A program made the translations under genes and the position numbers. A stretch of DNA of 53,945 nt, taken from assembly GCA_964550085.1 (NCBI GenBank), contig CAZJXR010000005.1, forward strand, positions 1-53,945. Direction: 5' to 3'. The DNA comes from an uncultured Gemmatimonadota bacterium. Its GTDB lineage: Bacteria > Gemmatimonadota > Gemmatimonadetes > Palauibacterales > Palauibacteraceae. The notes beneath the pieces are model-generated. The model made no database searches. It was not told the DNA's origin and saw nothing but the letters and a program-made list of their open reading frames with translations. The stretch's first letter is position 1. Each line of letters opens with the position of its first letter. Of this stretch, positions 8,400 to 48,562 are shown piece by piece.

Positions 8400-8450
8400 C
8401 AGGCGAGAGGAGGGAACGTCGTCACCGGGAGCGGGCAAGTGAAGCGGCTG

Positions 8451-8459
8451 TTATCCACA
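8451..8459 (+). promoter_or_regulatory. Perfect DnaA box TTATCCACA upstream of ftsZ
   Basis: Exact match to the canonical R-type 9-mer, in the 90-bp ftsA-ftsZ spacer, 30 nt before the ftsZ ATG. Confidence 0.6.
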
Positions 8460-8489
8460 GGGGGCGCAGGGAAACGTCGGGAGGAGCAG

Positions 8490-9629
8490 ATGATCTTCGA
8501 GTTTGATGAGGGTGTGGCGAGGAACGCGCGGATGAAGGTCGTCGGGGTTGGTGGCGCCGGAGGCAACGCGGTCAACCGGATGATCGACGAGGCGCTCGAC
8601 GGAGTCGAGTTCATCGCGATCAATACGGACGCGCAGGCCCTGAAGAAGTCCAACTCACACATAAAGATCCAGATCGGCAAGAAGCTGACGCGCGGGCTTG
8701 GAGCCGGTGCGAGACCGGAGATCGGGCGTCAGGCCATTGTCGAGAACGAGGAGGAAGTGGCGCGAGCGCTGGAAGGTGCGGATCTCGTGTTCGTGACCGC
8801 CGGCATGGGGGGCGGAACGGGAACCGGTGCCGCGCCTCGGATCGGTCAGCTCGCCCGCGAGAGCGGAGCGCTGTGCATCGGGATCGTGTCGAAACCGTTT
8901 CATTTCGAGGGCAAGAAGCGCATGCGGCACGCCGAGCTCGGCATGAGGGAGCTGAGGCAGGCAGTCGACACGATGATCGTTGTTCCCAATGAGCGCTTGC
9001 TGGCCGTGGTCGGCAAGGGCACGAGCTTCCGCGACGCCCTGAAAAAGGCGGACGAGGTGCTTCTTCACGCCACCCAGGGGATCTCGGACCTGATCAGCGT
9101 GACCGGGGAAGTGAACGTCGACTTCGCCGATGTCCGTACAATCATGTCGAACCGTGGCTCGGCCCTGATGGGGACCGGAGTAGCGGTCGGTGAGGATCGG
9201 GCGGTCGACGCCGCGCAGCAGGCGATCTGTTCGCCGCTCCTCGACAACGTGTCGATCAACGGTGCCACCGGCGTCCTGGTCAACATCACGGGTGGACTCG
9301 ACCTGGCGATCGACGAGGTGACGGCGATCAACTCGATCGTGCAGGAATCGGCCGGAGATGAAGCCGAGATGATCTTCGGTGCCGTGCACGATCCAGAGTT
9401 GGATGGCACGATCCGCGTAACCGTGATCGCCACCGGTTTCGGCGCCCACGATTCGGAAGAGGTGCCGGTGGAGGTGGAAAGCCGCTCGGACTTCGCGGGA
9501 CCGCGTCTCGTCCGGACCCCGGGGGATCCACCGCGGCCGGCGCAGGTGACTCGCACGGTCGGCGTTCCGCCGCGCAGCGGGCTCGAAGATCTCGAGATCC
9601 CAACGTTCATTCGGCGGCAGATGGACTAG
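8490..9629 (+). CDS. ftsZ: Cell division GTPase FtsZ
   Basis: GGAGGAG Shine-Dalgarno then ATG at 8490. [20 protein letters not shown] tubulin signature, NVDFADV T7 loop, C-terminal [12 protein letters not shown]. Confidence 0.99.
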
Positions 9630-9645
9630 CAGGATTGCGGCTTCG

Positions 9646-9765
9646 CCCTCGCCGGGGGAGCGGGTCTCCCCTCCTCACCACGCGCTTTAGGTGAGGAGCC
9701 TCCTCGCTCCGCTGCGGGGTCTCCTCACCGTCGCGCCAAAGGCTCGTCGGAGAGATCCCGCTCCC
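9646..9765. repeat. ~120-bp palindromic dispersed element (REP/MITE-like), copy 1
   Basis: Aligns to 46375-46495 with 19 differences in 121 columns by my manual alignment. Terminal inverted repeat GGGAGCGGG(A)TCTC / GAGATCCCGCTCCC. Internal stem GGTGAGGAG/CTCCTCACC. Confidence 0.85.
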
Positions 9766-9874
9766 TGAAGGAGTAGGCTGTGGTCGTCGCGCGAAGGGCG
9801 CTGGGGCGATGCCGCTCCCCGAAGCGATGGGCTGAGGGGTCCTCAGCGTCGCGCGAACGGTCGCTTCAGGGGGT

Positions 9875-9906
9875 GGGAACGTAAGGCACGGGGAACGTAG
9901 GGCACG
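9875..9906 (+). repeat. 16-bp tandem direct repeat (2 copies, 1 mismatch)
   Basis: GGGAACGTAAGGCACG (9875-9890) followed by GGGAACGTAGGGCACG (9891-9906). Confidence 0.8.
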
Positions 9907-24746: not shown

Positions 24747-27206
24747 GTGGTGCGGATCGGTGTCGCGCTCGCGGTGGGCGAGCTCGCCGCCTTGTGGCTC
24801 GGTGATCGCGTCCCCGCCCCGGCCTTGGTTCCGTGGCTGCTCGCCTTGATTCTCCTGGCTGTCGGCCTTCTGCGATGGTGGTGCGGTGCGGAAAGGGCGG
24901 TCACGGAGGTTACCTCCCGCCATCGCGGCGGCGGGCGCCGGGGCAGGGGCGGGTCGGCAGGTGGCGGAGTGGTCAGCGGCTGTATCGCCGCCGCGCTGCT
25001 GGCGGGGTTGGCGCTCGGCATCTCTGCCGGCGGCAGCTCGGAGGCCTCGTGCACCGCGGCTCTGTCGACGGGCGACCGAGTGGCGGCGGTCGGCGTTCCG
25101 GAGGCGCCGGAGGCGCCCGTGAAAGACGCGGGCGGTCGGTCGCGCGGCGTCTCCACCCGCTACCTCTATCTCCGTGGGGTGGAACTCCGCCGGGGCGGCC
25201 GCGTGTGTCGATTGCCGCGGCTGGCGGTTCGGCTGCGCGGCGAACCACCCGGAGCAGCTGGCGCCCGCGGGATCGAGTGGAGTCTCGACGGCGTCTGGCG
25301 TCGCACGGGCGCTCCCGAAGACGGGTGGCCGCGCTCGCCCGTTCGCTACGGCTACCTCTATGCTTCCGGTGCCGGAGTGAAGGACGCCACCGGGCAGGCG
25401 CCGGCCGCTCGTGACGGCCGGGCGCGGCTGCAGCGCGCGCTGCGATCCTTTCGCGAGCGAGCCGGGAGCAGGCTTCGACGGCTTCTGCCGCGGGATGTGG
25501 AGGGGATCGCCGTGGCCATGGTGTTGGCGGAGCGGGGCGACGTCGATCCCGGCGTGTCGCGCCGTTTCGCCGAGTCTGGCCTGGCCCATCTGTTGGCCAT
25601 CTCGGGCCTGCACGTGGGCATTCTGGCCGCTCTCGCCGCCTCTCTGTTTGGCCTGCTGGTCTCGTTTCGCTTTCGCCTTCCCCTCGCCGCGGGAGTAGTC
25701 CTCGGGTACGTAACGGCCATCGGCGCCCCCCCGGCGGCCCTCCGCGCCGGCTTGCTGTTCGCCGCCTACGCCACAGCCCGGCTGCAGGGGAGCCCGCGCC
25801 GGCTGTCCGACATGGTCGGCTTGGCCGCCATCGTGGCTCTCCTCATCGAGCCGATCCATCTACTCGAAGCGAGCTTTCAGCTTTCCTTCGCCGGTTTCGT
25901 CGGGGTGGTGGCTGGCGCCCGCGCCGGGGATCGTCTGACGGGCCCGCGAGGGGGTCGACTTGCTCGTCGGGGACCGGGGTGGCGGGCCGCGCGCTGGCTG
26001 GCCGCCAGCACGGGAGCCTTTTTGTTCACGGCCCCGTTTTCCGCCATGCATTTTCAACGTTCGGCCCCGATCGCCGTCGCGTCGAGCATGGTCGGAACTC
26101 CACTCGTCGGTCTTATCCTGCCGGCGCTGGTCGGTGCGCTGCTCCTGCCCGGACCGCTCGCCACCCTGAGCGCGGGCGCGGCGACGGCGCTGGTCCGGTT
26201 CCTGTACCGAGCGGTGTCCCTGTTTGCCGCCCTCCCGTTCGGTCACGGGGCGATCGCACCTCCGCGCGCGCACCACTGGATCGCGTTTCTTCTCCTCGCC
26301 CTCGCTCTGGCCGCTGCGGCGCACGGGCTGCGGGGCCGCGCCCTGCTGCGTGCCGGCGCGGCGCTGGCGCTGCTGGTCGCCGGCCCCGGGCTGTCCGGCC
26401 TGCCGCTGCGTGGAATGACGCTGCTCTGCACCCTGTCGGTGGGACAGGGCGACGCGGCGGTCGTGCGGACGCGGCGGGGGAACTGGATCGTCCTCGATGT
26501 CGGTCCGGGTGGTGGACGTTCCGACCCTGTGGTCCGCTTCCTCCGCGCGCACGGTGCACGCGGTGTCGAGCTGTTCTCGCTCAGTCATCCGCATCTGGAC
26601 CACATGGGAGGCGCGACCGAGCTGTTCGACGCCTTTCGGGTGCGGCGCGTGCTGGACGCCGGGAATCCACTGGCCAGCTCCCGGTACGGGGAATTCCTCG
26701 ATGCGGTCGAGGCCGAAGGGGCGGAGTGGCTACGTGCTCGAACCGGCACCCGACTTCGCCTCGACGAGATCCGGATCGCCGTGTTGGGACCCGATGACTG
26801 GCAGGCCGACGACGGTGCGGACAGCTTCCTGGAGGCGAATGAGGCGAGCCTGGCAATGCGAATCGGCGTGCACGAGCATTTCGCGTATATCAACACGGGC
26901 GATGCATCGCGCGCCGAGGAAGACGCCATGCTAGCGCGCTGGCCGCCGGACTTCCTGCGCGCACAGGTGCTGAAGCTGGGGCACCACGGTAGCCGGACGT
27001 CGTCCGGGTTACCGTGGCTGCGGGCGACGCGGCCCGAGGTGGCCATCATCTCTGCCGGAATCGGCAATCGCTACGGGCACCCTCATCCGGAGACCCTGGC
27101 GCGCCTCGACTCCGCCGGCCCGATCCGCGTGTGGCGAACCGATCGCCAGGGAACCCTGTGCATCCAAGTCGAGCGCGACGGAGCGTGGCGGCTGCGGGAT
27201 CCCTGA
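24747..27206 (+). CDS. comEC: DNA uptake channel ComEC/Rec2
   Basis: HLLAISGLHV competence domain, SFQLSF, metallo-beta-lactamase domain with VGQGDA, SHPHLDHMGG, GHHGS, NRYGHPHP. Confidence 0.95.
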   Translation: MVRIGVALAVGELAALWLGDRVPAPALVPWLLALILLAVGLLRWWCGAERAVTEVTSRHRGGGRRGRGGSAGGGVVSGCIAAALLAGLALGISAGGSSEASCTAALSTGDRVAAVGVPEAPEAPVKDAGGRSRGVSTRYLYLRGVELRRGGRVCRLPRLAVRLRGEPPGAAGARGIEWSLDGVWRRTGAPEDGWPRSPVRYGYLYASGAGVKDATGQAPAARDGRARLQRALRSFRERAGSRLRRLLPRDVEGIAVAMVLAERGDVDPGVSRRFAESGLAHLLAISGLHVGILAALAASLFGLLVSFRFRLPLAAGVVLGYVTAIGAPPAALRAGLLFAAYATARLQGSPRRLSDMVGLAAIVALLIEPIHLLEASFQLSFAGFVGVVAGARAGDRLTGPRGGRLARRGPGWRAARWLAASTGAFLFTAPFSAMHFQRSAPIAVASSMVGTPLVGLILPALVGALLLPGPLATLSAGAATALVRFLYRAVSLFAALPFGHGAIAPPRAHHWIAFLLLALALAAAAHGLRGRALLRAGAALALLVAGPGLSGLPLRGMTLLCTLSVGQGDAAVVRTRRGNWIVLDVGPGGGRSDPVVRFLRAHGARGVELFSLSHPHLDHMGGATELFDAFRVRRVLDAGNPLASSRYGEFLDAVEAEGAEWLRARTGTRLRLDEIRIAVLGPDDWQADDGADSFLEANEASLAMRIGVHEHFAYINTGDASRAEEDAMLARWPPDFLRAQVLKLGHHGSRTSSGLPWLRATRPEVAIISAGIGNRYGHPHPETLARLDSAGPIRVWRTDRQGTLCIQVERDGAWRLRDP

Positions 27207-27366
27207 CGGTCCTGGCAGGTCGCTGGGTGGCTCGATGCTTGACCGCCGCCGCACCGCGATCCAAAGTGTAATCTGCACGGACCGCTCGCCCGTGGCGCTC
27301 GGGGAAGCGCGTGGTGCGAGACTGCCGGACCGGCGCCCTCAAATACGGTCGAACCGGGAGACACGC

Positions 27367-28377
27367 ATGGACAAGTCCGTTGTCACCATCGAGCGCTTCA
27401 TCATCGGACAGGAGCGCAGGTACCCGCAGGCGCGTGGCGCCCTGTCATCGATCCTGTACGACCTCACCCTGGCGGCCAAGCTCATCAGCCGAGAGGTAAA
27501 CAAGGCAGGGCTGGTGGATATCCTCGGCAAGACCGGTCACGAGAATATCCATGGCGAGGAAGTCCGCAAGCTCGACGACTACGCCAACGAGGTGATCTTT
27601 CGCGCTCTCGATCACACCGGCCTGCTGTGCCTCATGGCGTCCGAGGAGGAAGACGAGGTGATTCTCATTCCGGAGCGCTTCGACGTCGGCGACTACGTTC
27701 TCCTGTACGATCCGCTCGACGGCAGCTCCAACATCGACGCCAACATCTCGATCGGAACCATATTCTCCATTCATCGCCGCGTAACATCCGGTCGTGACGG
27801 CACGCTCCAGGACTGCCTTCAGAAAGGGAGCAAGCAGGTGGCGGCCGGATACGTGATGTACGGATCTTCCACCATGCTCGTGTACACGACGGGCAGCGGC
27901 GTGCACGCCTTTACTCTCGATCCCTCCATCGGCGAGTTCCTCCTCTCGAACCCCGACATCCGGATCCCTTCACCGGGTAAGCGGATCTACAGCGTGAACG
28001 AAGGAAACTTCCGCCGCTGGAGCGAGCCTCAGAGGCGGCTCGCCCGCTATCTGCGGGGCGAGGAAGGGGACGGCGAAGCTTTTTCGATGCGGTACGTCGG
28101 ATCGCTGGTGGCAGACTTCCACCGCACGCTGTCCTATGGTGGGCTGTTCATGTATCCGGGCGACTCGAGCTCACCCGACGGGAAGCTCCGCCTCCTGTAT
28201 GAGGCGGCACCTCTGGCCCTGATCTGCGAACAGGCGGGCGGACGGGCGACGAACGGAAAGCAGGACATCCTTTCGATCCGGCCTCGGGCACTGCACGAGC
28301 GTACGCCGCTATTCATCGGCAGCGCCGAGTTCGTCGACATCGCGCACAGTTTCCTGGATGGTGGTCGCCCCGCTTGA
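27367..28377 (+). CDS. fbp: Fructose-1,6-bisphosphatase class 1
   Basis: GGAG then ATG at 27367. SEEE, DPLDGSSN, GTIFSI, RYVGSLVAD, GKLRLLYE. Confidence 0.97.
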   Translation: MDKSVVTIERFIIGQERRYPQARGALSSILYDLTLAAKLISREVNKAGLVDILGKTGHENIHGEEVRKLDDYANEVIFRALDHTGLLCLMASEEEDEVILIPERFDVGDYVLLYDPLDGSSNIDANISIGTIFSIHRRVTSGRDGTLQDCLQKGSKQVAAGYVMYGSSTMLVYTTGSGVHAFTLDPSIGEFLLSNPDIRIPSPGKRIYSVNEGNFRRWSEPQRRLARYLRGEEGDGEAFSMRYVGSLVADFHRTLSYGGLFMYPGDSSSPDGKLRLLYEAAPLALICEQAGGRATNGKQDILSIRPRALHERTPLFIGSAEFVDIAHSFLDGGRPA

Positions 28378-41550: not shown

Positions 41551-44505
41551 ATGACACGCGGGGCGATGCGGGCACGGAGCAGCGCCATCGCGAAGCTGGT
41601 CGGCGGAATCGCCATCCTGGCCCCGTGGGGCGTCGGCTGCCTGCGTGCCCAAGAGCCGGACCGTGCCGTCCGCATGACGCCCGCCCTCCGCTCGGCGCTC
41701 TTCGACCTCCGAAGCGGGGAGCGGCTCTCCGTCATCGTGGAGCTGGAGCGGGTCGCGCCAGCCGGAGGCGAGATCGTGGCGTTGCGGAGTCAGGCGGCGC
41801 TACTGCTGGCGCCGATCACCGAGGAGGCCGATCGCGGCGAGTTTACTCTCCTCGAGCGCTGGTGGGTGGTTCCGGCCGCGCTGGTGGAAGCCGACTCGGC
41901 CGCGATCGAGGCGCTGGCGATGCGGCCGGACGTCCGCCGCATCTACTTGGACGACCGCATTCCGGTCTCGCTCGAGCCGTCCCGTTCCGTGGCGGCGAAC
42001 GCCAGCTTCGTCTCGGCGGCCATGCAGACCGTCGGCGCCGACGCGGTGTGGCCCGCGGGGGTGACGGGTGAAGGGGTAACGGTCGCCATATTCGACAGCG
42101 GGGTCGAGGTCGACAACGCCATGCTCGGCGGTCGGTGGCGCGGTCACCGCACCTCCATACGAGCGAGCTGGTTCGACCCCTTCTACGGCGCGTCGAAACC
42201 GGTCGATCGCATCGGGCACGGCAGCCAGGTAGCGGCGGCGGCGGTCGGCGCGCTGGCGACCGGCGATTCCCTCCTCATGCCCGACGGCTCCGTCGTCGTG
42301 GCTGCCAGCGACATCGATGTGGTGACGGGGACCGCACCCCGCGCCGAGTGGATCGCGGCTCGCATCTTCGACCTTTTCGGCGGAGCGGTGTACACGCGGC
42401 GCTCGGTGATCCTGCAAGCGTTCCAGTGGGCCCTCGATCCGGATGGCGATCCGCGCACCGACGACGCGCCCGCGGTGATCAACAACAGCTGGGGCGCGCT
42501 CGATCCGCAGGACTTCGATGTGTGCAATGACATCGTCTACACGGCCATCGATGCGGCGGAAGCGGCCGGAATCGCGGTCGTGTTCGCTGCCGGCAACTTC
42601 GGGCCGGATCCGGAGACGGTGATCGCCCCCGCCGCCCGCGACGACCCCGAACTGGTCAGCTTCGCCGTCGGGGCGACCGAGGGCACCGGGTCCTCGGTCA
42701 CGGTCGCGGACTTCAGCTCGCGCGGCCCCTCGCCGTGCGGGGGTGGCATCAAGCCGAACATGGTGGCGCCCGGTCGCGTGCCCGAGGTGCGAACGGCGAC
42801 CGCGGGGGCGGCCCGGTTGACAGGGTTTTCCCTCACCGGAACCTCGTTCTCGACCGCCATCGTCTCTGGGGCGTTGGCACTGGTGCGGCAGGCACGTCCC
42901 GGGGCCACGCCGAAGCAGGCCAAGGAGATTTTGCTCGCCACCGCGCGCAGCGTCGACCCGCCCGAGCCTAACAACAACTCGGGCGCAGGGCTGCTGGACG
43001 TGCCGGCCGCGGTCCAGCAGGCGAATCCGGGCTTCGCCGGCCCGCTGGTCCAGATCGAGGCAGTCGAGCGGGAGGCCGGCGCCTTGCACGTCACGCTCGC
43101 CAACCGCGGCACGCTTCTGTTCGAGGGCGGTCGCTTGGCGGCGGAGGTGGGGGCTCGTCCGGTGGCCTCGGTTGCCGTCGGCCGGCTCGATCCGGGCGAG
43201 CGGCGCACGGTCGGCCTCGAGATCGGCAACGCGCACAGCCGGCGGGCCATCCGCCTGCTGGTCGCCGACGGCACCGGCCGCCCTCTGGTGACGCGCACCC
43301 TGCTCGGTGCTCCGCCCGATCTCACTGGCGGGTTCGTGCTCACCGCGGGTGGGCTGGAAGCGGGTGGAAACGACTTCGGTCGCCTGGGGCAGATCGCGGC
43401 CCCGCGGGGATTCGTGTTCCGGGGCCAAGACCTCCTCACCGGAGGCTCCTTCTTTTTGGCCGCCAATGGCAGGATCTCGGATGGAATCTACCTGACCGTA
43501 GAGGGGCTGCCGGGGCTCAAGGCCGAGCCGCCCGCCGCCGAGACGGATTGGGCCCCCGTGCGCCACCTTACCGATGTGAGCGCGGCCGAAGTCACCTTCC
43601 AGTTCGACGACGGCGAGGCGCTCGTCCCGCTCGGCGTCTCGGTGGACGTCCGCATGCAGGCTTCCGAGCAGAGCGGGGTGGCGGCGCTCGAGGTCGTGGC
43701 CGTGGTGCGCAACACGGGCACGCGGGCTCTGTCCAACGTTTCGCCGGGCGTGTTCGCAGATTGGGACCTGGCGGGTGGGGAGACGGTCGAGTACTCGGTC
43801 GAGAACGAAGCCCTTATCGCCCGCCCGTTGGCGGGCGGCCCCGAGGTTGCGATCCTCGCCGGCGAGGGAGCTCCTCGCGGTTTCGCCGCGGTGCCGCTCG
43901 GCACGCCCGATCCGTTCGGGTCGTATGTGGCGGGCAGCGGGGTGCTGGCCGACGGTGAGTTCGCGGATTCGACCAAGGCCAGACTGGCCGAAGGTGGCAC
44001 AGCCGCCAATCTGCCCGGCGCGGGAACGGCGGAGGATCAGTCGCAGCTCTTGAGCGTGGGTCCGCTCGCGATCGCCATCGGCGCCAGCGAGCTGGTGCGC
44101 TTCTGGCTGCTGGTGGCGGACGACGAGAGCGCGGCCGTCGCGCGGCTGACCGAGCTTCGCGCCGCGGCTCCGATCCCCCCGCCCACGCCGGGGCCGGGGC
44201 TGGGTCTGGTCCTGTTGCCGCCCTTTCCCAACCCGCTCACCATCGGGCAGGGAAGCGTCAGTTTTCCGTACACGGTGTCCGATCGGCTGCGGCGACCGGG
44301 GGCGGAGATCGTGTTCGAGATCTACGATGTGTCGGGCCGGCGGCTCGTCTCGCAGACCCTCCCGATCGGTGGAGCCGGTCCCCTGACCGTCCCCACCTGG
44401 GACGGGATGCTCGGCGGCTCCCGGCCGGCGGCGGCCGGCGTGTATCCGTATGTCTTCCGTCTCGGTGACCAGACGCAGTCGGGTCGAATCATGCTTCTGC
44501 ACTGA
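41551..44505 (+). CDS. Secreted S8 (subtilisin-like) serine protease with C-terminal FlgD-Ig/T9SS-CTD-like domain
   Basis: Signal peptide, prodomain, triad FDSG / GHGS / GTSF, oxyanion AAGN, INNSWG. Tail PFPNP...IYDVSGR...WDG...GVY. Start could be 41548, 41551 or 41566. Confidence 0.9.
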   Translation: MTRGAMRARSSAIAKLVGGIAILAPWGVGCLRAQEPDRAVRMTPALRSALFDLRSGERLSVIVELERVAPAGGEIVALRSQAALLLAPITEEADRGEFTLLERWWVVPAALVEADSAAIEALAMRPDVRRIYLDDRIPVSLEPSRSVAANASFVSAAMQTVGADAVWPAGVTGEGVTVAIFDSGVEVDNAMLGGRWRGHRTSIRASWFDPFYGASKPVDRIGHGSQVAAAAVGALATGDSLLMPDGSVVVAASDIDVVTGTAPRAEWIAARIFDLFGGAVYTRRSVILQAFQWALDPDGDPRTDDAPAVINNSWGALDPQDFDVCNDIVYTAIDAAEAAGIAVVFAAGNFGPDPETVIAPAARDDPELVSFAVGATEGTGSSVTVADFSSRGPSPCGGGIKPNMVAPGRVPEVRTATAGAARLTGFSLTGTSFSTAIVSGALALVRQARPGATPKQAKEILLATARSVDPPEPNNNSGAGLLDVPAAVQQANPGFAGPLVQIEAVEREAGALHVTLANRGTLLFEGGRLAAEVGARPVASVAVGRLDPGERRTVGLEIGNAHSRRAIRLLVADGTGRPLVTRTLLGAPPDLTGGFVLTAGGLEAGGNDFGRLGQIAAPRGFVFRGQDLLTGGSFFLAANGRISDGIYLTVEGLPGLKAEPPAAETDWAPVRHLTDVSAAEVTFQFDDGEALVPLGVSVDVRMQASEQSGVAALEVVAVVRNTGTRALSNVSPGVFADWDLAGGETVEYSVENEALIARPLAGGPEVAILAGEGAPRGFAAVPLGTPDPFGSYVAGSGVLADGEFADSTKARLAEGGTAANLPGAGTAEDQSQLLSVGPLAIAIGASELVRFWLLVADDESAAVARLTELRAAAPIPPPTPGPGLGLVLLPPFPNPLTIGQGSVSFPYTVSDRLRRPGAEIVFEIYDVSGRRLVSQTLPIGGAGPLTVPTWDGMLGGSRPAAAGVYPYVFRLGDQTQSGRIMLLH

Positions 44506-46246
44506 GGGCGGGGTCGTCGCCCGACCGCCCCAACCCGCGCAGTAGGTCCTCGTCCGGCTCCACGAACAGCGTCGTCACCCGGTCGGGTGTCACCGCGCCC
44601 GGCGCCGCCTTGCGCGGCTTCCGCACGTACTTTCGACGCGTCCAGTCGACCGCAACCGTGCCGCTGTGCCGTGCCTCGCTGTGAACGGCAGCCGCGACGG
44701 CAGCCTCCAGGAGGTCGCGCTGCGGGGGGTTCGCGTCCGCGCGGCCCCAACGGAGGATGACGTGTGCGCCCTTCGACTGACGGGCGTGGAGCCAGATGTC
44801 CTCCGGTGCCGAATGGTGAAAGGTGAGCGCGTCGTTGTGGCGCGCTCCGCGGCCGACCCGGATCTCCAGCCCGCCGCTCGACGCGTAGGTCCGGTACGGA
44901 AGGGACGGGGAGCGTCGGGGCTGTCGGCGCGTCCTCTCGTGTCGTCCTCCTGCCAATCGCCACGACGCTTCGAGCAGGCTCGGGTCTCGACCCGCGTCGT
45001 CTGCCACCCGGACCGCCTGCTCGCGCACCCGCCGGATCTTCGAGTCCAAACGAGCGATGCGGGCCGGAAGATCGGCTTCGGCGCGCCGCCGACGCCCCGC
45101 CTGCTGGTAGTAGCGCTCCGCGTTGGCCGCCGGCGCGAGCCGTGGGTCGAGCTCGATGTCGCGCTCTCGGCCCTCGAAGTCGCGCACCCGGGCAACCGAA
45201 TCCCCTCGTCGCACTTCGTTCAAGCGGGCCAGGATCAGGTCGCCGATCGACTGCAGCTCCGCCGCGTCCGGGCCCCGCCGCAGCTCTCGTTCGAGCGCCG
45301 CCCGCCGCCGCTCGAGGTGCCGTGCGCGCCGCTCGAGCGCGTCGATCACCGCCGCACGATCGAGGTCTGTCCCTCGGTCGAGCACCCGAAGCCGCTCGAC
45401 ACGGCCGGCGTCTTCGCCCGAGCCGACGGCGCGCTCCGTGATGCCCGGCCGCGCGTCGTCGAAGGCGAGACGCATGGCTGCGAGCAAAGAGGCGGCGGAC
45501 GTCGCGCCCGGGTCAAATAGAGAGAAGGGATACGGCTGGCGTCCCCACTTGCGGGGTACCAGCCACCCCTCCGCGCCGGGGTCCGCGCGCAGAGAAGCAT
45601 AACGCGTGTGCGCGTGCTCGAGACGTGTTGCTTCTCTCTCCGTCGTCCCCTCGCCCAGAACGTAATCCACGTTGATGGCGCTGGTGTAAGCGATCTCCCG
45701 CAGAAGAAAGCCACGCAGCGCGTCGGGCGGAACACCGCCCAGCACGTCCCGCCACTCCGTCACCGTCGGCGGAGCCTGCGCGAACCGACGCGCCCCGGAG
45801 CGGCGCTCGTACGTCGAGCCGGGTCGCACGGGGCGTCGACCAGCGACGCGCACCGACAGGACGGCCTGCGCCCGGTCGTCCGTGGAATCGACGAGGATCG
45901 CGTTCCGTCGATTGGCGGGCAGCTCGAAGACGAGGCGCTGTCGCACGCCGCCACGCCGCCCCGCAAGCTCGACCTCCAGCTGCCGCTCGTCGGGCGGCGC
46001 GATCACGCGACCGATCGAAAGGCCGCGCAGCGGTGTGAACGAGCCGGCCGCGAGGGGGCCGTCGAGGAGCACATAGCCGTCTTCGGGGTGCAGGAACACC
46101 ACCAAAGTGGCGCCATCGTCGAACGCGAGGCCGACCACCTGCCGCTTCCGGTCGATCACCAGCCGTCGGGCACGGCGATCGCAGAGAGCTTCGCTCAGCT
46201 CCTGCGCCAGAGCTCGACACAACACCGGATCGAAGCGAACGCTCAC
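44489..46246 (-). CDS. rqcH: NFACT family protein, RqcH/FbpA-like ribosome quality control factor
   Basis: GTG at 46246 (MSVRFDPVL). NFACT-N, coiled coils, IELDPRLAPAANAERYY, NFACT-R with VGRGARHND and WLHARQSKGAHV, VDWTRRKYVRKP. 3' end overlaps the S8 gene by 17 bp. Confidence 0.88.
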   Translation of the reverse strand: MSVRFDPVLCRALAQELSEALCDRRARRLVIDRKRQVVGLAFDDGATLVVFLHPEDGYVLLDGPLAAGSFTPLRGLSIGRVIAPPDERQLEVELAGRRGGVRQRLVFELPANRRNAILVDSTDDRAQAVLSVRVAGRRPVRPGSTYERRSGARRFAQAPPTVTEWRDVLGGVPPDALRGFLLREIAYTSAINVDYVLGEGTTEREATRLEHAHTRYASLRADPGAEGWLVPRKWGRQPYPFSLFDPGATSAASLLAAMRLAFDDARPGITERAVGSGEDAGRVERLRVLDRGTDLDRAAVIDALERRARHLERRRAALERELRRGPDAAELQSIGDLILARLNEVRRGDSVARVRDFEGRERDIELDPRLAPAANAERYYQQAGRRRRAEADLPARIARLDSKIRRVREQAVRVADDAGRDPSLLEASWRLAGGRHERTRRQPRRSPSLPYRTYASSGGLEIRVGRGARHNDALTFHHSAPEDIWLHARQSKGAHVILRWGRADANPPQRDLLEAAVAAAVHSEARHSGTVAVDWTRRKYVRKPRKAAPGAVTPDRVTTLFVEPDEDLLRGLGRSGDDPALSAEA

Positions 46247-46374
46247 CGGACACCCCGAACGAGCTGTTCGCGCGACGAGAGGTCTCGGCACATCTTCGGC
46301 TCGGTAACAGCCCCTCCCAGCGAGTGGGAGCTCGGCGACGAGAAGGGTCCGCACCTCATATTCGGCTCGGCGTC

Positions 46375-46495
46375 CCCTCACCGTGGTAGCGGGATCTCCT
46401 CTCCTCACCACGCGCTTTGGGCGCGGAGCCTCCTCGCTTTGCTGTGGGGTCTCCGCGCCGTCGCGCGAACGGTTCGTCGCGGAGATCCTGCTCCC
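46375..46495. repeat. ~120-bp palindromic dispersed element (REP/MITE-like), copy 2
   Basis: Same orientation as 9646-9765. Termini GGTAGCGGGATCTCC / GGAGATCCTGCTCCC. Internal stem GGCGCGGAG/CTCCGCGCC. Confidence 0.85.
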
Positions 46496-46543
46496 ACTGG
46501 GCACGCCGGCGACCGCCAGCGAGGGCGAACCCGCGGCCCTGCA

Positions 46544-48562
46544 CTAGCTGCTCGGCCCGGGCGCGGCGTCCCGCGACGCGAGCTCGATCTCGACCGCGGC
46601 GTCGCCGACCGTGGATGCCCAGCGCGGCGTGATCGACTCGCCCTGGACGGTGGTCTCGAGGCCGCGCTCCGATCGGGTCACGGTCTCGATAGGATACCGC
46701 CACAGCTCGGCATCCGGCGAGCACCGAACGAACACCGCCCGGGCCACCGACAGCTCGGGTGCGAAAATGGAGTTGGCCGGCAGCGTACCCGGCTCCCACC
46801 AGTAGGTGGCAGACAGCTCCCCCCGATGTCCGAATCGGAGACACTTCTCGACCGCGCCGCCGCTCGTCGTCCGACATACGACCTCGATGCCGTTTCCGGC
46901 GAGGCGAACATCGCACCCCCAGGCGACGGTGGCCAGCGAACGGATCGGCGCGTAATCGCCCGCGGCGTACGGGTCGGGCTCGAGTTCGGCGGCCAGGAAC
47001 CGCTCGACCAGCAGTGCGCGCGGTTCCGGGTCGCGAGGCGGAAGCTCGGCCAGCGTGGCGCGACGTTCGATGTGGTGGATGCTCAAACCGCCCCGCGCGC
47101 CGCCCGCGCGCCGCCGGCTCTTTCCCGTGCGGCCACCCGTTTCGGCCGGGGCGCGCGCGGTCCGCCGCTCCACCGCCCGGCGGTGATAGGCTTCGATCCG
47201 TCGAGTCAGCACGTCGGCCAGGTTGGCGCCGTCGTCGAACAGGGTGTACTCCTCGATGGCGGCGCCGCGATACGGGGAGATAATGGCCGAGAATCGATTC
47301 GAGTGGAGCCAGATCTCCGTGTGGCCGTCGGCGTCGATGTCGAGCCACTCGTATCCGGGCGGTTCGTCCTGACGCAGGATCCGCTCCCCGATCGCCAGCT
47401 GACGCCACACGGCGGCGCGCAGGTGCGGCAGGTACAGACCCCCGAAGACGCCGTGCCAGTACGCGTCGTTGCACTGCGCTCGACCGATTGCCCGGCGCGC
47501 TTCCGGAGGGTCACCGCGCTGTCTGGACAGCCGCGACAGCGCCGTCATCTTCTTGTGCATCCGGTTCGCTTCCGGATACTTGACGAGGAAGTTGAGCCAG
47601 TGCCCTCCGCGCACGAGGGCGCCATCTGGACCGGCGGACCGTTCCTCGCCGAGCTCTTCGCGAAGAGCAGCCAGTCGAGCCGAGGCGGTCGGAGGCAGCG
47701 CCCACTCCTCCATCTCCCGATACGAGGCCGTCGGGAGGTAGGCCAGCCCGCCACCGGGCAGAGTCTCGAGCGCGGCGGCGAACGTCGTCAGCTCCAGCTC
47801 GCCGCGCTCGAGCAGGCGCGCCATCGCTCGCAGGAACCGGTCGAGCCAGCCGCTTCCGTACACCCGTTTCCTCGTTCCGGGCCAGCCACCGAACTTCTCT
47901 CCATCGTCGGCCAGCACGGCCAGCGAACGGCCGTTCTGGCGCAATCTACGCAGGTAGCGCACGATGTCGCGCGGGGCGCGAAACGGGATCAGGTATCGGA
48001 GACGCTCGTCGATCGCGAACAGTCCGAGCCGACGGCCGTCGCTCTCCGTCCAGAACGGCCGGTCGAGCGCGGCGCGCTCGAAGCCGTTGACCAGGAAGTG
48101 CCGGTCATCGACCAGGGCGAAGGCCACTCCGGCGCGTGTCAGATCCTCCACCAGCGACGGATCCCACACCCGTTCGGTGAGCCACAAGCCGCGGGCCTCG
48201 ACGCCGAAGCGGTCCCGGATCCGCTCGCGCATCCACTCGATCTGCTCCAGGCGGTCGGCGCGTGGAATGCCGACCAGGATCGGCTCGTACATCCCCGCCA
48301 GCAGCAGCTCCGCGTGACCGGATGCGGCCAGCGAACCGATCAGATCGAGCAGGGCGGTATCATGCGCCTCCAGCCACTCGAGCAGCGGTCCCGACAGGTG
48401 CACCGCGATCGGCAGGAAGTCGCGTTCTGCGAGCCGGGTGAGGAACGGCAGGTACACCCGCCGCACGTGCTCCTCGATGACGCGGTCAAAGTTGCCGACC
48501 GGTTGGTGCAGGTGGACGCCGAACGCGAACCGGAGCGGTGGTCCGGGGCTGGACGCCTTCAT
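46544..48562 (-). CDS. GH57 alpha-amylase / 4-alpha-glucanotransferase (AmyA type, DUF1925/DUF1926-like C-terminus)
   Basis: HLHQPVGN, WLTERVW (nucleophile E), DDGEKFGGWP (acid/base D), AQCNDAYWHGVFGGLYLPHLR. Confidence 0.92.
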   Translation of the reverse strand: MKASSPGPPLRFAFGVHLHQPVGNFDRVIEEHVRRVYLPFLTRLAERDFLPIAVHLSGPLLEWLEAHDTALLDLIGSLAASGHAELLLAGMYEPILVGIPRADRLEQIEWMRERIRDRFGVEARGLWLTERVWDPSLVEDLTRAGVAFALVDDRHFLVNGFERAALDRPFWTESDGRRLGLFAIDERLRYLIPFRAPRDIVRYLRRLRQNGRSLAVLADDGEKFGGWPGTRKRVYGSGWLDRFLRAMARLLERGELELTTFAAALETLPGGGLAYLPTASYREMEEWALPPTASARLAALREELGEERSAGPDGALVRGGHWLNFLVKYPEANRMHKKMTALSRLSRQRGDPPEARRAIGRAQCNDAYWHGVFGGLYLPHLRAAVWRQLAIGERILRQDEPPGYEWLDIDADGHTEIWLHSNRFSAIISPYRGAAIEEYTLFDDGANLADVLTRRIEAYHRRAVERRTARAPAETGGRTGKSRRRAGGARGGLSIHHIERRATLAELPPRDPEPRALLVERFLAAELEPDPYAAGDYAPIRSLATVAWGCDVRLAGNGIEVVCRTTSGGAVEKCLRFGHRGELSATYWWEPGTLPANSIFAPELSVARAVFVRCSPDAELWRYPIETVTRSERGLETTVQGESITPRWASTVGDAAVEIELASRDAAPGPSS

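Follow-up and report, generated by a model that had tools for sequence, protein, structure and literature searches.

Few parts of bacterial genomes are as poorly understood as short palindromic repeats, whose spread and effect on the host both remain mostly obscure. In enterobacteria the repetitive extragenic palindromic (REP) sequences and bacterial interspersed mosaic elements (BIMEs) are GC-rich imperfect palindromes, extragenic and mostly placed at gene 3' ends or between cistrons, which are co-transcribed and form mosaics of units and linker motifs with no adjacent transposase. Rickettsia palindromic elements (RPEs), of ~100-150 nt, can lie in-frame within conserved genes, where their translation adds a surface segment to the protein. 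The Correia/NEMIS, ERIC/IRU and BOX elements are co-transcribed long hairpins, modular and similar to miniature inverted-repeat transposable elements (MITEs), with terminal repeats and target duplications. REPINs consist of two conserved inverted REP ends around a variable spacer, are placed at random in extragenic DNA and depend on a single-copy REP-associated tyrosine transposase (RAYT) (PMC3116915). The subject here is a palindromic element found twice, at 9646-9765 and 46375-46495, in the 53,945-nt contig CAZJXR010000005.1 of an uncultured Gemmatimonadota bacterium (assembly GCA_964550085.1), the whole of which is referred to as the window. Dispersed palindromic repeats are a known kind of sequence; within the reach of our searches, what appear to be new are the build with a conserved centre and variable ends, the placement behind stop codons with one fixed orientation, the copies that a polymerase gene carries in-frame in this phylum and the core common to a MITE of Bacillaceae. 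Literature searches found no paper on the repeat, and ISfinder, Dfam and subscription journals lay outside their scope, so 'undescribed' is limited accordingly.

The elements are inserted, multi-copy DNA that keeps its hairpin around a fixed centre, and in the Gemmatimonadota they stand almost exclusively 0-80 nt past a stop codon, their core being in sense orientation. The unit is an imperfect GC-rich hairpin of about 115-125 nt. Its central ~30 nt are almost invariant (GGAGCCTCCTCG, a short variable hairpin and CTGCGGGGTCTCC), and its arms vary by locus yet remain complementary. The reading that we favour, with moderate confidence, is that of a REP/BIME- and RPE-like palindromic insertion family in which the hairpin is co-transcribed at the 3' end of genes and the centre serves as a recognition site.

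The two window copies were first noticed in a model's reading of the letters alone (hereafter the sequence-only reading), which counted 19 differences in 121 columns; alignment gives the same count, an identity of 84.3%. Direct reading of both copies likewise confirms the two compensatory changes it described, double changes by which the inner stem GGTGAGGAG/CTCCTCACC of copy 1 becomes GGCGCGGAG/CTCCGCGCC in copy 2, both being perfect 9-bp stems. The ~14-bp inverted repeat that it saw closing both copies is present in the folds as an outer stem of ~14-17 bp (9654-9669/9749-9765 and 46383-46399/46480-46497). Each copy forms a single long rod-like hairpin whichever strand is folded, at -66.6 and -73.2 kcal/mol on the plus strand and -76.5 and -73.2 kcal/mol on the minus strand; the z-scores lie between -3.4 and -5.9, and 0/200 shuffles reach the fold energy of any of the four strands. 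Both stretches of the supposed 120-bp two-copy repeat were thus real, but the block proved larger than 120 bp and the copies far more numerous than two. The proposal of a structure-conserving dispersed family has held, with many copies and with covariation above every control. It had also been said that no named family could be matched, and Rfam 15 indeed gave no match at gathering score across the window; at E up to 10, with 8 loci searched, nothing relevant was found on either window element.

Covariation was examined in the nine full copies of the source genome and in 32 elements made up of these nine and 23 from other genomes, and a covariance model (R1) was built. RNAalifold found 38 pairs in the nine copies, with 95.3% of cells paired and 11 double-changed pairs against a shuffled mean of 4.8 (0/500 shuffles reached the observed value). 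Changes on both sides of a pair affected 22 cells against one with a one-sided change, and pairing dropped to 44-64% when the partner was slid by 1-3 columns. Among the 32 elements, whose alignment is itself fitted to R1, 92.7% of cells pair (75.4% in shuffles), 26 of the 38 pairs are double-changed and 186 cells are changed on both sides against 10 on one side. None of 500 shuffles was as good and the slid controls paired at 45-53%; the covariance-model check suggested in the sequence-only reading came out in favour of a conserved structure. Seven core pairs, a fixed U-G pair included, are invariant in these 32 elements from several genera. The information per position falls from 0.55-0.57 bits beside the core to 0.05-0.08 bits at 50-60 nt out, and at 18 loci of the genomes G075 and G089 the outer arms are locus-specific within one genome. 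The minus strand is the more stable in 30 of 46 elements, which gives no support to a fold confined to the sense strand. Wobble pairs are more numerous in the sense than in the antisense strand (138 vs 88; sign test 38 vs 15), but the sense share of 0.611 equals the 0.615 expected from base composition and the apparent bias is therefore uninformative.

The source draft genome comprises 3.55 Mb in 283 contigs at 67% G+C, with the window as contig C5, and was surveyed with an nhmmer profile built from eight copies. This census, which answers the question of copy number raised by the sequence-only reading, gave 35 matches (31 with E<0.01) at 19 loci. Nine copies are near full length (C5 twice, C4, C63, C241, C68, C182, C113 and C35) and the remainder are halves; in the window nothing matched besides the two copies and 9828-9861. 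Contigs terminate within a copy at 11 ends or more, and the true copy number is therefore higher. The copies are 77-89% alike across their whole length, which points to recent amplification in this genome. Two arm types, A and B, are present, and the mosaic loci C182, C138, C35, C15 and C113 carry stacked left halves, a full unit and tandem linker-plus-right-half units. The composite order seen is L_B L_A core R_A R_B, and at some loci one unit is nested in the apical loop of another. Contigs from two DNA runs break within the copy 1 element, records ending at 9636 and starting at 9697, and other contigs of these runs match only ~9695-9727 with unlike arms; no contig joint skipping the element was found in the two runs, a result that is uninformative on excision. 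In practice such repeats break assemblies and let open reading frame (ORF) callers run start codons through copies.

That the elements are inserted DNA follows from empty sites, in-frame inserts in a polymerase gene, nested and tandem half-units, assembly breaks and a patchy distribution. The search for empty sites in close relatives proposed in the sequence-only reading was successful at copy 1, as in the same-genus genome G001 ftsZ has 78% DNA identity and the same C-terminus and a block of ~235 nt (9630-~9870) is missing. Five covariance-model matches lie inside a long open frame in which the element is flanked by DNA_pol3_alpha, finger domain and HHH_6 Pfam matches. Here the element-bearing inserts, of 42-76 aa, split HHH_6 of the DNA polymerase III (Pol III) alpha subunit between WDCTLE and PALRLGLR. 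They occur in five genomes of three genera (G013, G074 and G106 of one genus, G018 and G006), whereas orthologues with an empty site have 3 aa (G001) or 9 aa (G055) at this position, which shows the element to be an insertion that a gene can carry in its reading frame. In four of the inserts the core is sense and is read as ..SEPPR..AGSP.., and in G106 it is antisense; the occurrence of both orientations within one genus suggests that the element can flip, or insert twice, at one site.

Comparison of the same sites in related species showed further variation, above all in a genus here called g15. Behind its FBPase gene the full element is found in three species and is decayed or truncated in two. 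G080 and the complete genome G055 are empty behind yebC, RNase E/G and FBPase, where other members of the genus carry the element. At the yebC and RNase E/G sites sister species differ in the arm subtypes around the same core, and composites, left halves only, or nothing at all are also seen. The differing inner subtypes at the RNase E/G site are all enclosed by a retained outer stem specific to that locus, CGGCCGCC/GGCGGCCG. Arms are unlike between loci of one genome and common to orthologous loci of two species; with subtypes varying at such loci, the g15 copies are therefore old and locus-bound, yet turned over. The FBPase gene of the window itself (26974-28374) has no element behind it, and those of five g15 species have one.

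The placement of the elements was assessed from 42 covariance-model matches in the family, with position counts that rest on a crude ORF caller based on G+C content at third codon positions (GC3). At 27 of the 42 a co-oriented ORF ends between 16 nt inside the element and 82 nt before it. The others have a divergent neighbour (one, at 189 nt), a distant co-oriented ORF (two), a distant opposite ORF (three) or no call (nine, including the five coding-region copies and window copy 2). The 27 copies at stop codons span 19 gene families, with upstream genes that include ftsZ, dnaJ, FBPase, ribonucleotide reductase, RNase E/G, yebC, secA, rpsG, TonB and SufBD, and the downstream neighbour is co-oriented in 13 cases and convergent in 14. 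In the source genome the first arm begins 0-8 nt past the stop codon at 9/11 loci. Window copy 2 is placed as the rule predicts, but the core runs antisense to the genes on either side. The neighbouring stop codon is TAG at seven of the 11 loci, and at an eighth (C38:79-90, minus strand) the gene ends with TGA, a TAG follows directly and then the first arm; the genome-wide share of TAG is 28.7% of 2133 crude ORFs (P = 0.017 and 0.003 for enrichment). The ftsZ stop codon is TGA in G001 and TAG in the window genome, and the enrichment was not seen in genus g15. This is suggestive, in that TAG may be part of the element's edge or of its target. At L248 of G097, behind RNase E/G, the last ~22 nt including the TAG are tandemly duplicated right before the element (TACGCGGTTGCGTAGCGGGTCG / TACGCGGTGGCGTAGCGGCCGCC).

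The distribution of the element across genomes is patchy. BLAST gave matches, mostly to the centre only, in 8/24 genomes of the same family and in 0/16 of a sister family. R1 matches were found in 23/101 family genomes and 8/20 genera, with large differences between genera (10/12 genomes in g15 and 6/16 in g13, but 0/23 in g16, 0/11 in g7 and 0/8 in g11). Carriers have 1-11 R1 matches each, the window genome having the most. The exact core pattern occurred in 10/401 sampled genomes of the phylum and in two of 12 families (5/29 and 4/4) and was not found in three large families (0/166, 0/94 and 0/70); a reversed control pattern gave no match in the 401 genomes. A caveat that must be applied here is that absence from metagenome-assembled genomes (MAGs) is weak evidence, as repeats often go unassembled. 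Public records with the same elements are MAGs assigned to Gemmatimonadota or Gemmatimonadales, and the loci L152 and L207 (relative G102) are identical over the element.

The core is also present in a second phylum. With one genome taken per species, the core pattern occurs at at least 126 loci, and among the matches listed most are from Neobacillus, Peribacillus, Sutcliffiella, Priestia and other Bacillaceae, together with Gemmatimonadota MAGs; one Phycisphaerae match looks like chance or coding sequence, and a match in a Galbibacter MAG looks Bacillaceae-like. The Bacillaceae element is a genuine transposed MITE, a 184-nt palindrome centred on the core, in which all 22 specified core bases are identical, with conserved terminal repeats (GGCTGTGTTAAAC...) and AT-rich 8-bp target duplications. 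One complete Neobacillus genome has at least 40 left-arm matches scored out of 119 candidates. In the 24 copies with both ends the duplication agrees at 8/8 positions in eight, at 7/8 in eight and more poorly in eight. The MITE is, if it has any preference, mostly antisense to neighbouring genes in this genome (17 vs 6 upstream, 14 vs 8 downstream), by counts that rest on crude ORF calls; the orientation of two copies is ambiguous. When R1 was applied to Bacillaceae copies the fit was mainly to model positions ~41-80, and no full-length match scored above 26.5 bits; the elements of the two phyla share only the core and a general hairpin build. No insertion sequence (IS) end was found that could indicate an autonomous partner of the Bacillaceae MITE, and plasmid matches were either unannotated or a partial copy in a Tn3-family transposon that carries pentose-phosphate/ribulose monophosphate (RuMP) genes. 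That partial copy (L235/L236, 3501-3619, in Bacillus subtilis and Paenibacillus urinalis plasmids) runs from the left end through the core and lies between a hypothetical gene and gnd, in cargo that holds pgi, gnd and zwf. A search for core-less ancestors of the MITE brought only deletion or insertion variants, and L278 (Neobacillus G486, C1 ~1808412) is a 308-nt copy with an insertion of ~125 nt in the core between GGAGC and CTCCTCG. The one notable Rfam match at E up to 10 was that of tsr24 to the minus strand of a Neobacillus copy, at 33 bits against a cut-off of 50, and it led nowhere; the accessible text of its paper gives coordinates and reverse transcription PCR validation only (PMC4752604).

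From the sense position behind stop codons we infer that transcription of the upstream gene takes in the elements, which would lie at the 3' end of its mRNA or between cistrons. A hairpin of -60 to -80 kcal/mol with no U-tract would form a barrier to 3' exonucleases or to read-through and would thereby protect or delimit that mRNA. Where it starts within ~15 nt of the stop codon it could, by analogy, also hinder terminating ribosomes, as REPs near stop codons of E. coli reportedly do. The invariant centre, and not the ends, would be the site for a copying or recombining activity. The complementarity of the arms may be restored by templated repair within the hairpin, by selection or by both; double changes with few one-sided intermediates fit templated correction within a palindrome, of the kind that arises by template switching at quasipalindromes, as well as they fit selection. 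Exchange of arm subtypes and inversion of the centre would both result from recombination between copies, which is proposed as the explanation of the arm swaps and flipped cores.

Several observations weigh against this reading. The search for an enzyme, for target duplications and for conserved termini of the Gemmatimonadota elements brought nothing, and movement is therefore read from its outcomes only. Insertion alone leaves the strict sense orientation unexplained, both strands folding equally well. The loci behind FBPase, yebC, RNase E/G and SecA are kept across species of a genus, a pattern that a cis-element under selection would explain as well as an old insertion would. Canonical terminators stand between stop codon and element at three loci (L190/L295, L053 and L292), where the element is thus not needed for termination. 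The invariance of the core is partly a search artefact, because the covariance model and the search pattern both reward it. To these must be added the general limits of draft genomes, crude gene calls and core-rewarding searches. The system nevertheless offers clean handles, namely a fixed 30-nt centre, a near-absolute placement rule, sites that are filled, empty, swapped or decayed in sister species, in-frame polymerase copies and a relative in another phylum that is a bona fide transposed MITE. With these it becomes directly testable how the centre is recognised, what a hairpin at the stop codon does to stability or termination and how the repeat crossed between phyla.

Among described families the elements resemble REP/BIME, from which they differ in scale and in placement. 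Both are multi-copy GC-rich palindromes that form mosaics with linkers at gene 3' ends, with no transposase beside them. The units here are three times longer, have an invariant centre instead of a conserved whole unit, stand in strict sense orientation directly behind the stop codon with some copies in coding sequence, and show no link to a RAYT. The resemblance to RPEs, compared by description and not by sequence, lies in the in-frame palindromic insert in HHH_6. This RPE feature was found in five relatives and not in the window, and unlike RPEs the elements belong to an unrelated phylum, are mostly intergenic at stop codons and have in-frame copies in one gene. Correia/NEMIS, ERIC/IRU and BOX are similar as long hairpins in transcribed intergenic DNA, BOX also having repeated sub-modules. 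These families and the Bacillaceae MITE have terminal repeats and target duplications, neither of which was found in the Gemmatimonadota copies, and the Bacillaceae MITE differs in its orientation rule as well. No target duplication was seen at the junctions of own-genome and g15 copies, where composites and old, diverged sites could hide one, and no T run such as marks an intrinsic terminator follows the copies read.

The rival that survives best, though we consider it unlikely, is a dedicated cis-acting RNA motif of the 3' untranslated region, in which a protein or RNase would bind the conserved apical loops and bulges and thereby set mRNA 3' ends, stability or translation termination; the copies would then be functional gene parts that were duplicated only occasionally. 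It accounts well for the sense orientation and the proximity to stop codons in 27/42 matches with a divergent neighbour in only one, for the same housekeeping genes carrying the element in several species, and for the lack of a U-tract or sigma-70-like promoter nearby. An invariant unpaired or wobble core among freely covarying stems is a classic signature of structured RNA, but the sense-strand wobble share is no higher than composition predicts and one-sided G-U intermediates are rare (10 vs 186 cells). An RNA motif also sits poorly with the in-frame polymerase copies, one of them antisense, with window copy 2 lying antisense to its neighbours, with the nested and tandem half-units and contig breaks of the source genome, with the element not being found in most of the phylum and with the mainly antisense position of the core-bearing Neobacillus MITE. 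A further reading, just as improbable in our judgement, makes the centre a self-contained module and the arms its carrier. The centre would home into 3'-end hairpin loops or be recognised by a host or mobile enzyme, and the repeat class would be defined by the conserved centre, passing between phyla on differing carriers, flipping in place and being tolerated in-frame in an essential-type polymerase gene.

Less probable still is a classical MITE, that is, an IS deletion derivative moved in trans by a DDE transposase acting on terminal inverted repeats. The MITE option of the sequence-only reading applies to the distant relative, the same-core 184-nt elements of Bacillaceae with their terminal repeats and 8-bp duplications. 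It does not carry over to the elements of Gemmatimonadota, whose outermost arms are the least conserved part and are locus-specific, whose copies as read have no direct repeats around them and to which the covariance model ties the Bacillaceae copies mostly over the core. The absence of a transposase from the window, as that reading had stated, was confirmed by a Pfam scan of 34 window ORFs.

A REPIN population replicated by a single-copy RAYT, also offered in the sequence-only reading, can be dismissed as highly improbable, for although the elements resemble REPINs in being ~100-nt hairpins kept by frequent compensatory changes that form within-genome populations and tandem clusters (PMC3116915, PMC3337134, RAREFAN preprint), conservation is inverted, with the centre conserved and the ends variable where REPINs have conserved ends, placement is at stop codons instead of at random in extragenic DNA (PMC3116915), and the one RAYT-like gene of the genome is neither flanked by the repeats nor tracks them. 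This gene, the sole Y1_Tnp-family ORF of the source genome, encodes 141 aa (G000:C7:6743-7072; L031 1459-1884, minus strand), and no repeat copy flanks it. Single-copy Y1_Tnp genes are found in 48/101 family genomes, in 13/23 carriers of the element vs 35/78 non-carriers, and are absent from the richest carriers G075, G089 and G070. The protein has an HVH motif and reads RFIGRQQ, with a Phe, at what we take to be the position of the catalytic Tyr motif; it looks like a domesticated or inactive HUH protein unrelated to the repeat. The RAYT link was rejected for want of flanking repeats, of co-occurrence and, apparently, of the catalytic Tyr. A link to TnpB was rejected as well, PF07282 having no match in the source genome. 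In the 101 family genomes PF07282 has one long ORF, of 617 aa, in G103 of the element-free genus g16, and its other matches are small zinc-ribbon ORFs, all but three shorter than 120 aa.

The window copies are themselves layered. The repeat block at copy 1 is a composite that extends from the ftsZ stop codon to ~9880, and that at copy 2, layered like the first, extends from ~46361 to 46538 and ends 6 bases from the TAG stop codon of the right-hand, minus-strand GH57 gene. Their parts are as follows.

9627-9629, plus strand: TAG stop codon of ftsZ (ORF 8439-9629, Tubulin/FtsZ_C domains); the repeat block begins at the next base
9630-9653, plus strand: degenerate left-arm fragment of type B, CAGGATTGCGGCTTCGCCCTCGCC, forming the composite's outer layer and resembling the left arm GGGGTCGCGGGTTCGCCCTCGCTGG
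9654-9765, plus strand: full type A unit (copy 1), by fold, R1 match (125 bits) and consensus structure
9654-9669/9749-9765, 9682-9685/9732-9735 and 9690-9698/9721-9729, plus strand: outer stem, GCGC stem and inner stem of copy 1, by fold
9695-9724, plus strand: near-invariant core GGAGCCTCCTCG-CTCCG-CTGCGGGGTCTCC, with the fixed U-G pair and C/U mismatches, by the 32-element alignment
9766-9820, plus strand: linker TGAAGGAGTAGGCTGTG and type B right half-unit GTCGTCGCGCGAAGGGCGCTGGGGCGATGCCGCTCCCC, by tandem equivalents elsewhere in the genome
9821-9879, plus strand: second, more degenerate right half-unit, read in the sequence, with a weak nhmmer match at 9828-9861 (E=0.16)
46361-46382, plus strand: left-arm-like fragment TTCGGCTCGGCGTCCCCTCACC beside copy 2, equivalent by alignment to the one that precedes other type A copies on their left
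46383-46497, plus strand: full type A unit (copy 2), by fold and R1 match (119.7 bits)
46383-46399/46480-46497, 46420-46428/46451-46459 and 46425-46454, plus strand: outer stem, inner stem and core of copy 2, by fold
46516-46538, plus strand: type B arm CCAGCGAGGGCGAACCCGCGGCC, on the minus strand a left arm starting 6 nt past the GH57 stop codon
46544-46546, minus strand: TAG stop codon of the GH57-family gene (46544-48562)

The left arm GGGGTCGCGGGTTCGCCCTCGCTGG is present at C182, C113, C35, C134 and C180 of the source genome, and the linker TGAAGGAGTAGGCTGTG with right-half units is tandemly repeated at C182, C15, C138 and C35. Neither window copy has a predicted sigma-70-like promoter or a hairpin-plus-T-run terminator. 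As the sequence-only reading had noted, copy 1 lies between plus-strand genes, here ftsZ, which closes a mur/fts cluster, and the gene of an M23 peptidase, and copy 2 between minus-strand genes, here those that encode a GH57 enzyme and a protein of the NFACT type. A 16-nt tandem duplication lies at the right edge of the copy 1 block, at 9875-9906 (GGGAACGTAAGGCACG then GGGAACGTAGGGCACG); the left edge has nothing comparable. As called mechanically, the ORF of the NFACT-type gene (44489-46504, minus strand) crosses copy 2 and reaches a GTG at 46504, from which the NFACT domains lie far downstream, so that a gene caller could put the start codon inside the repeat.

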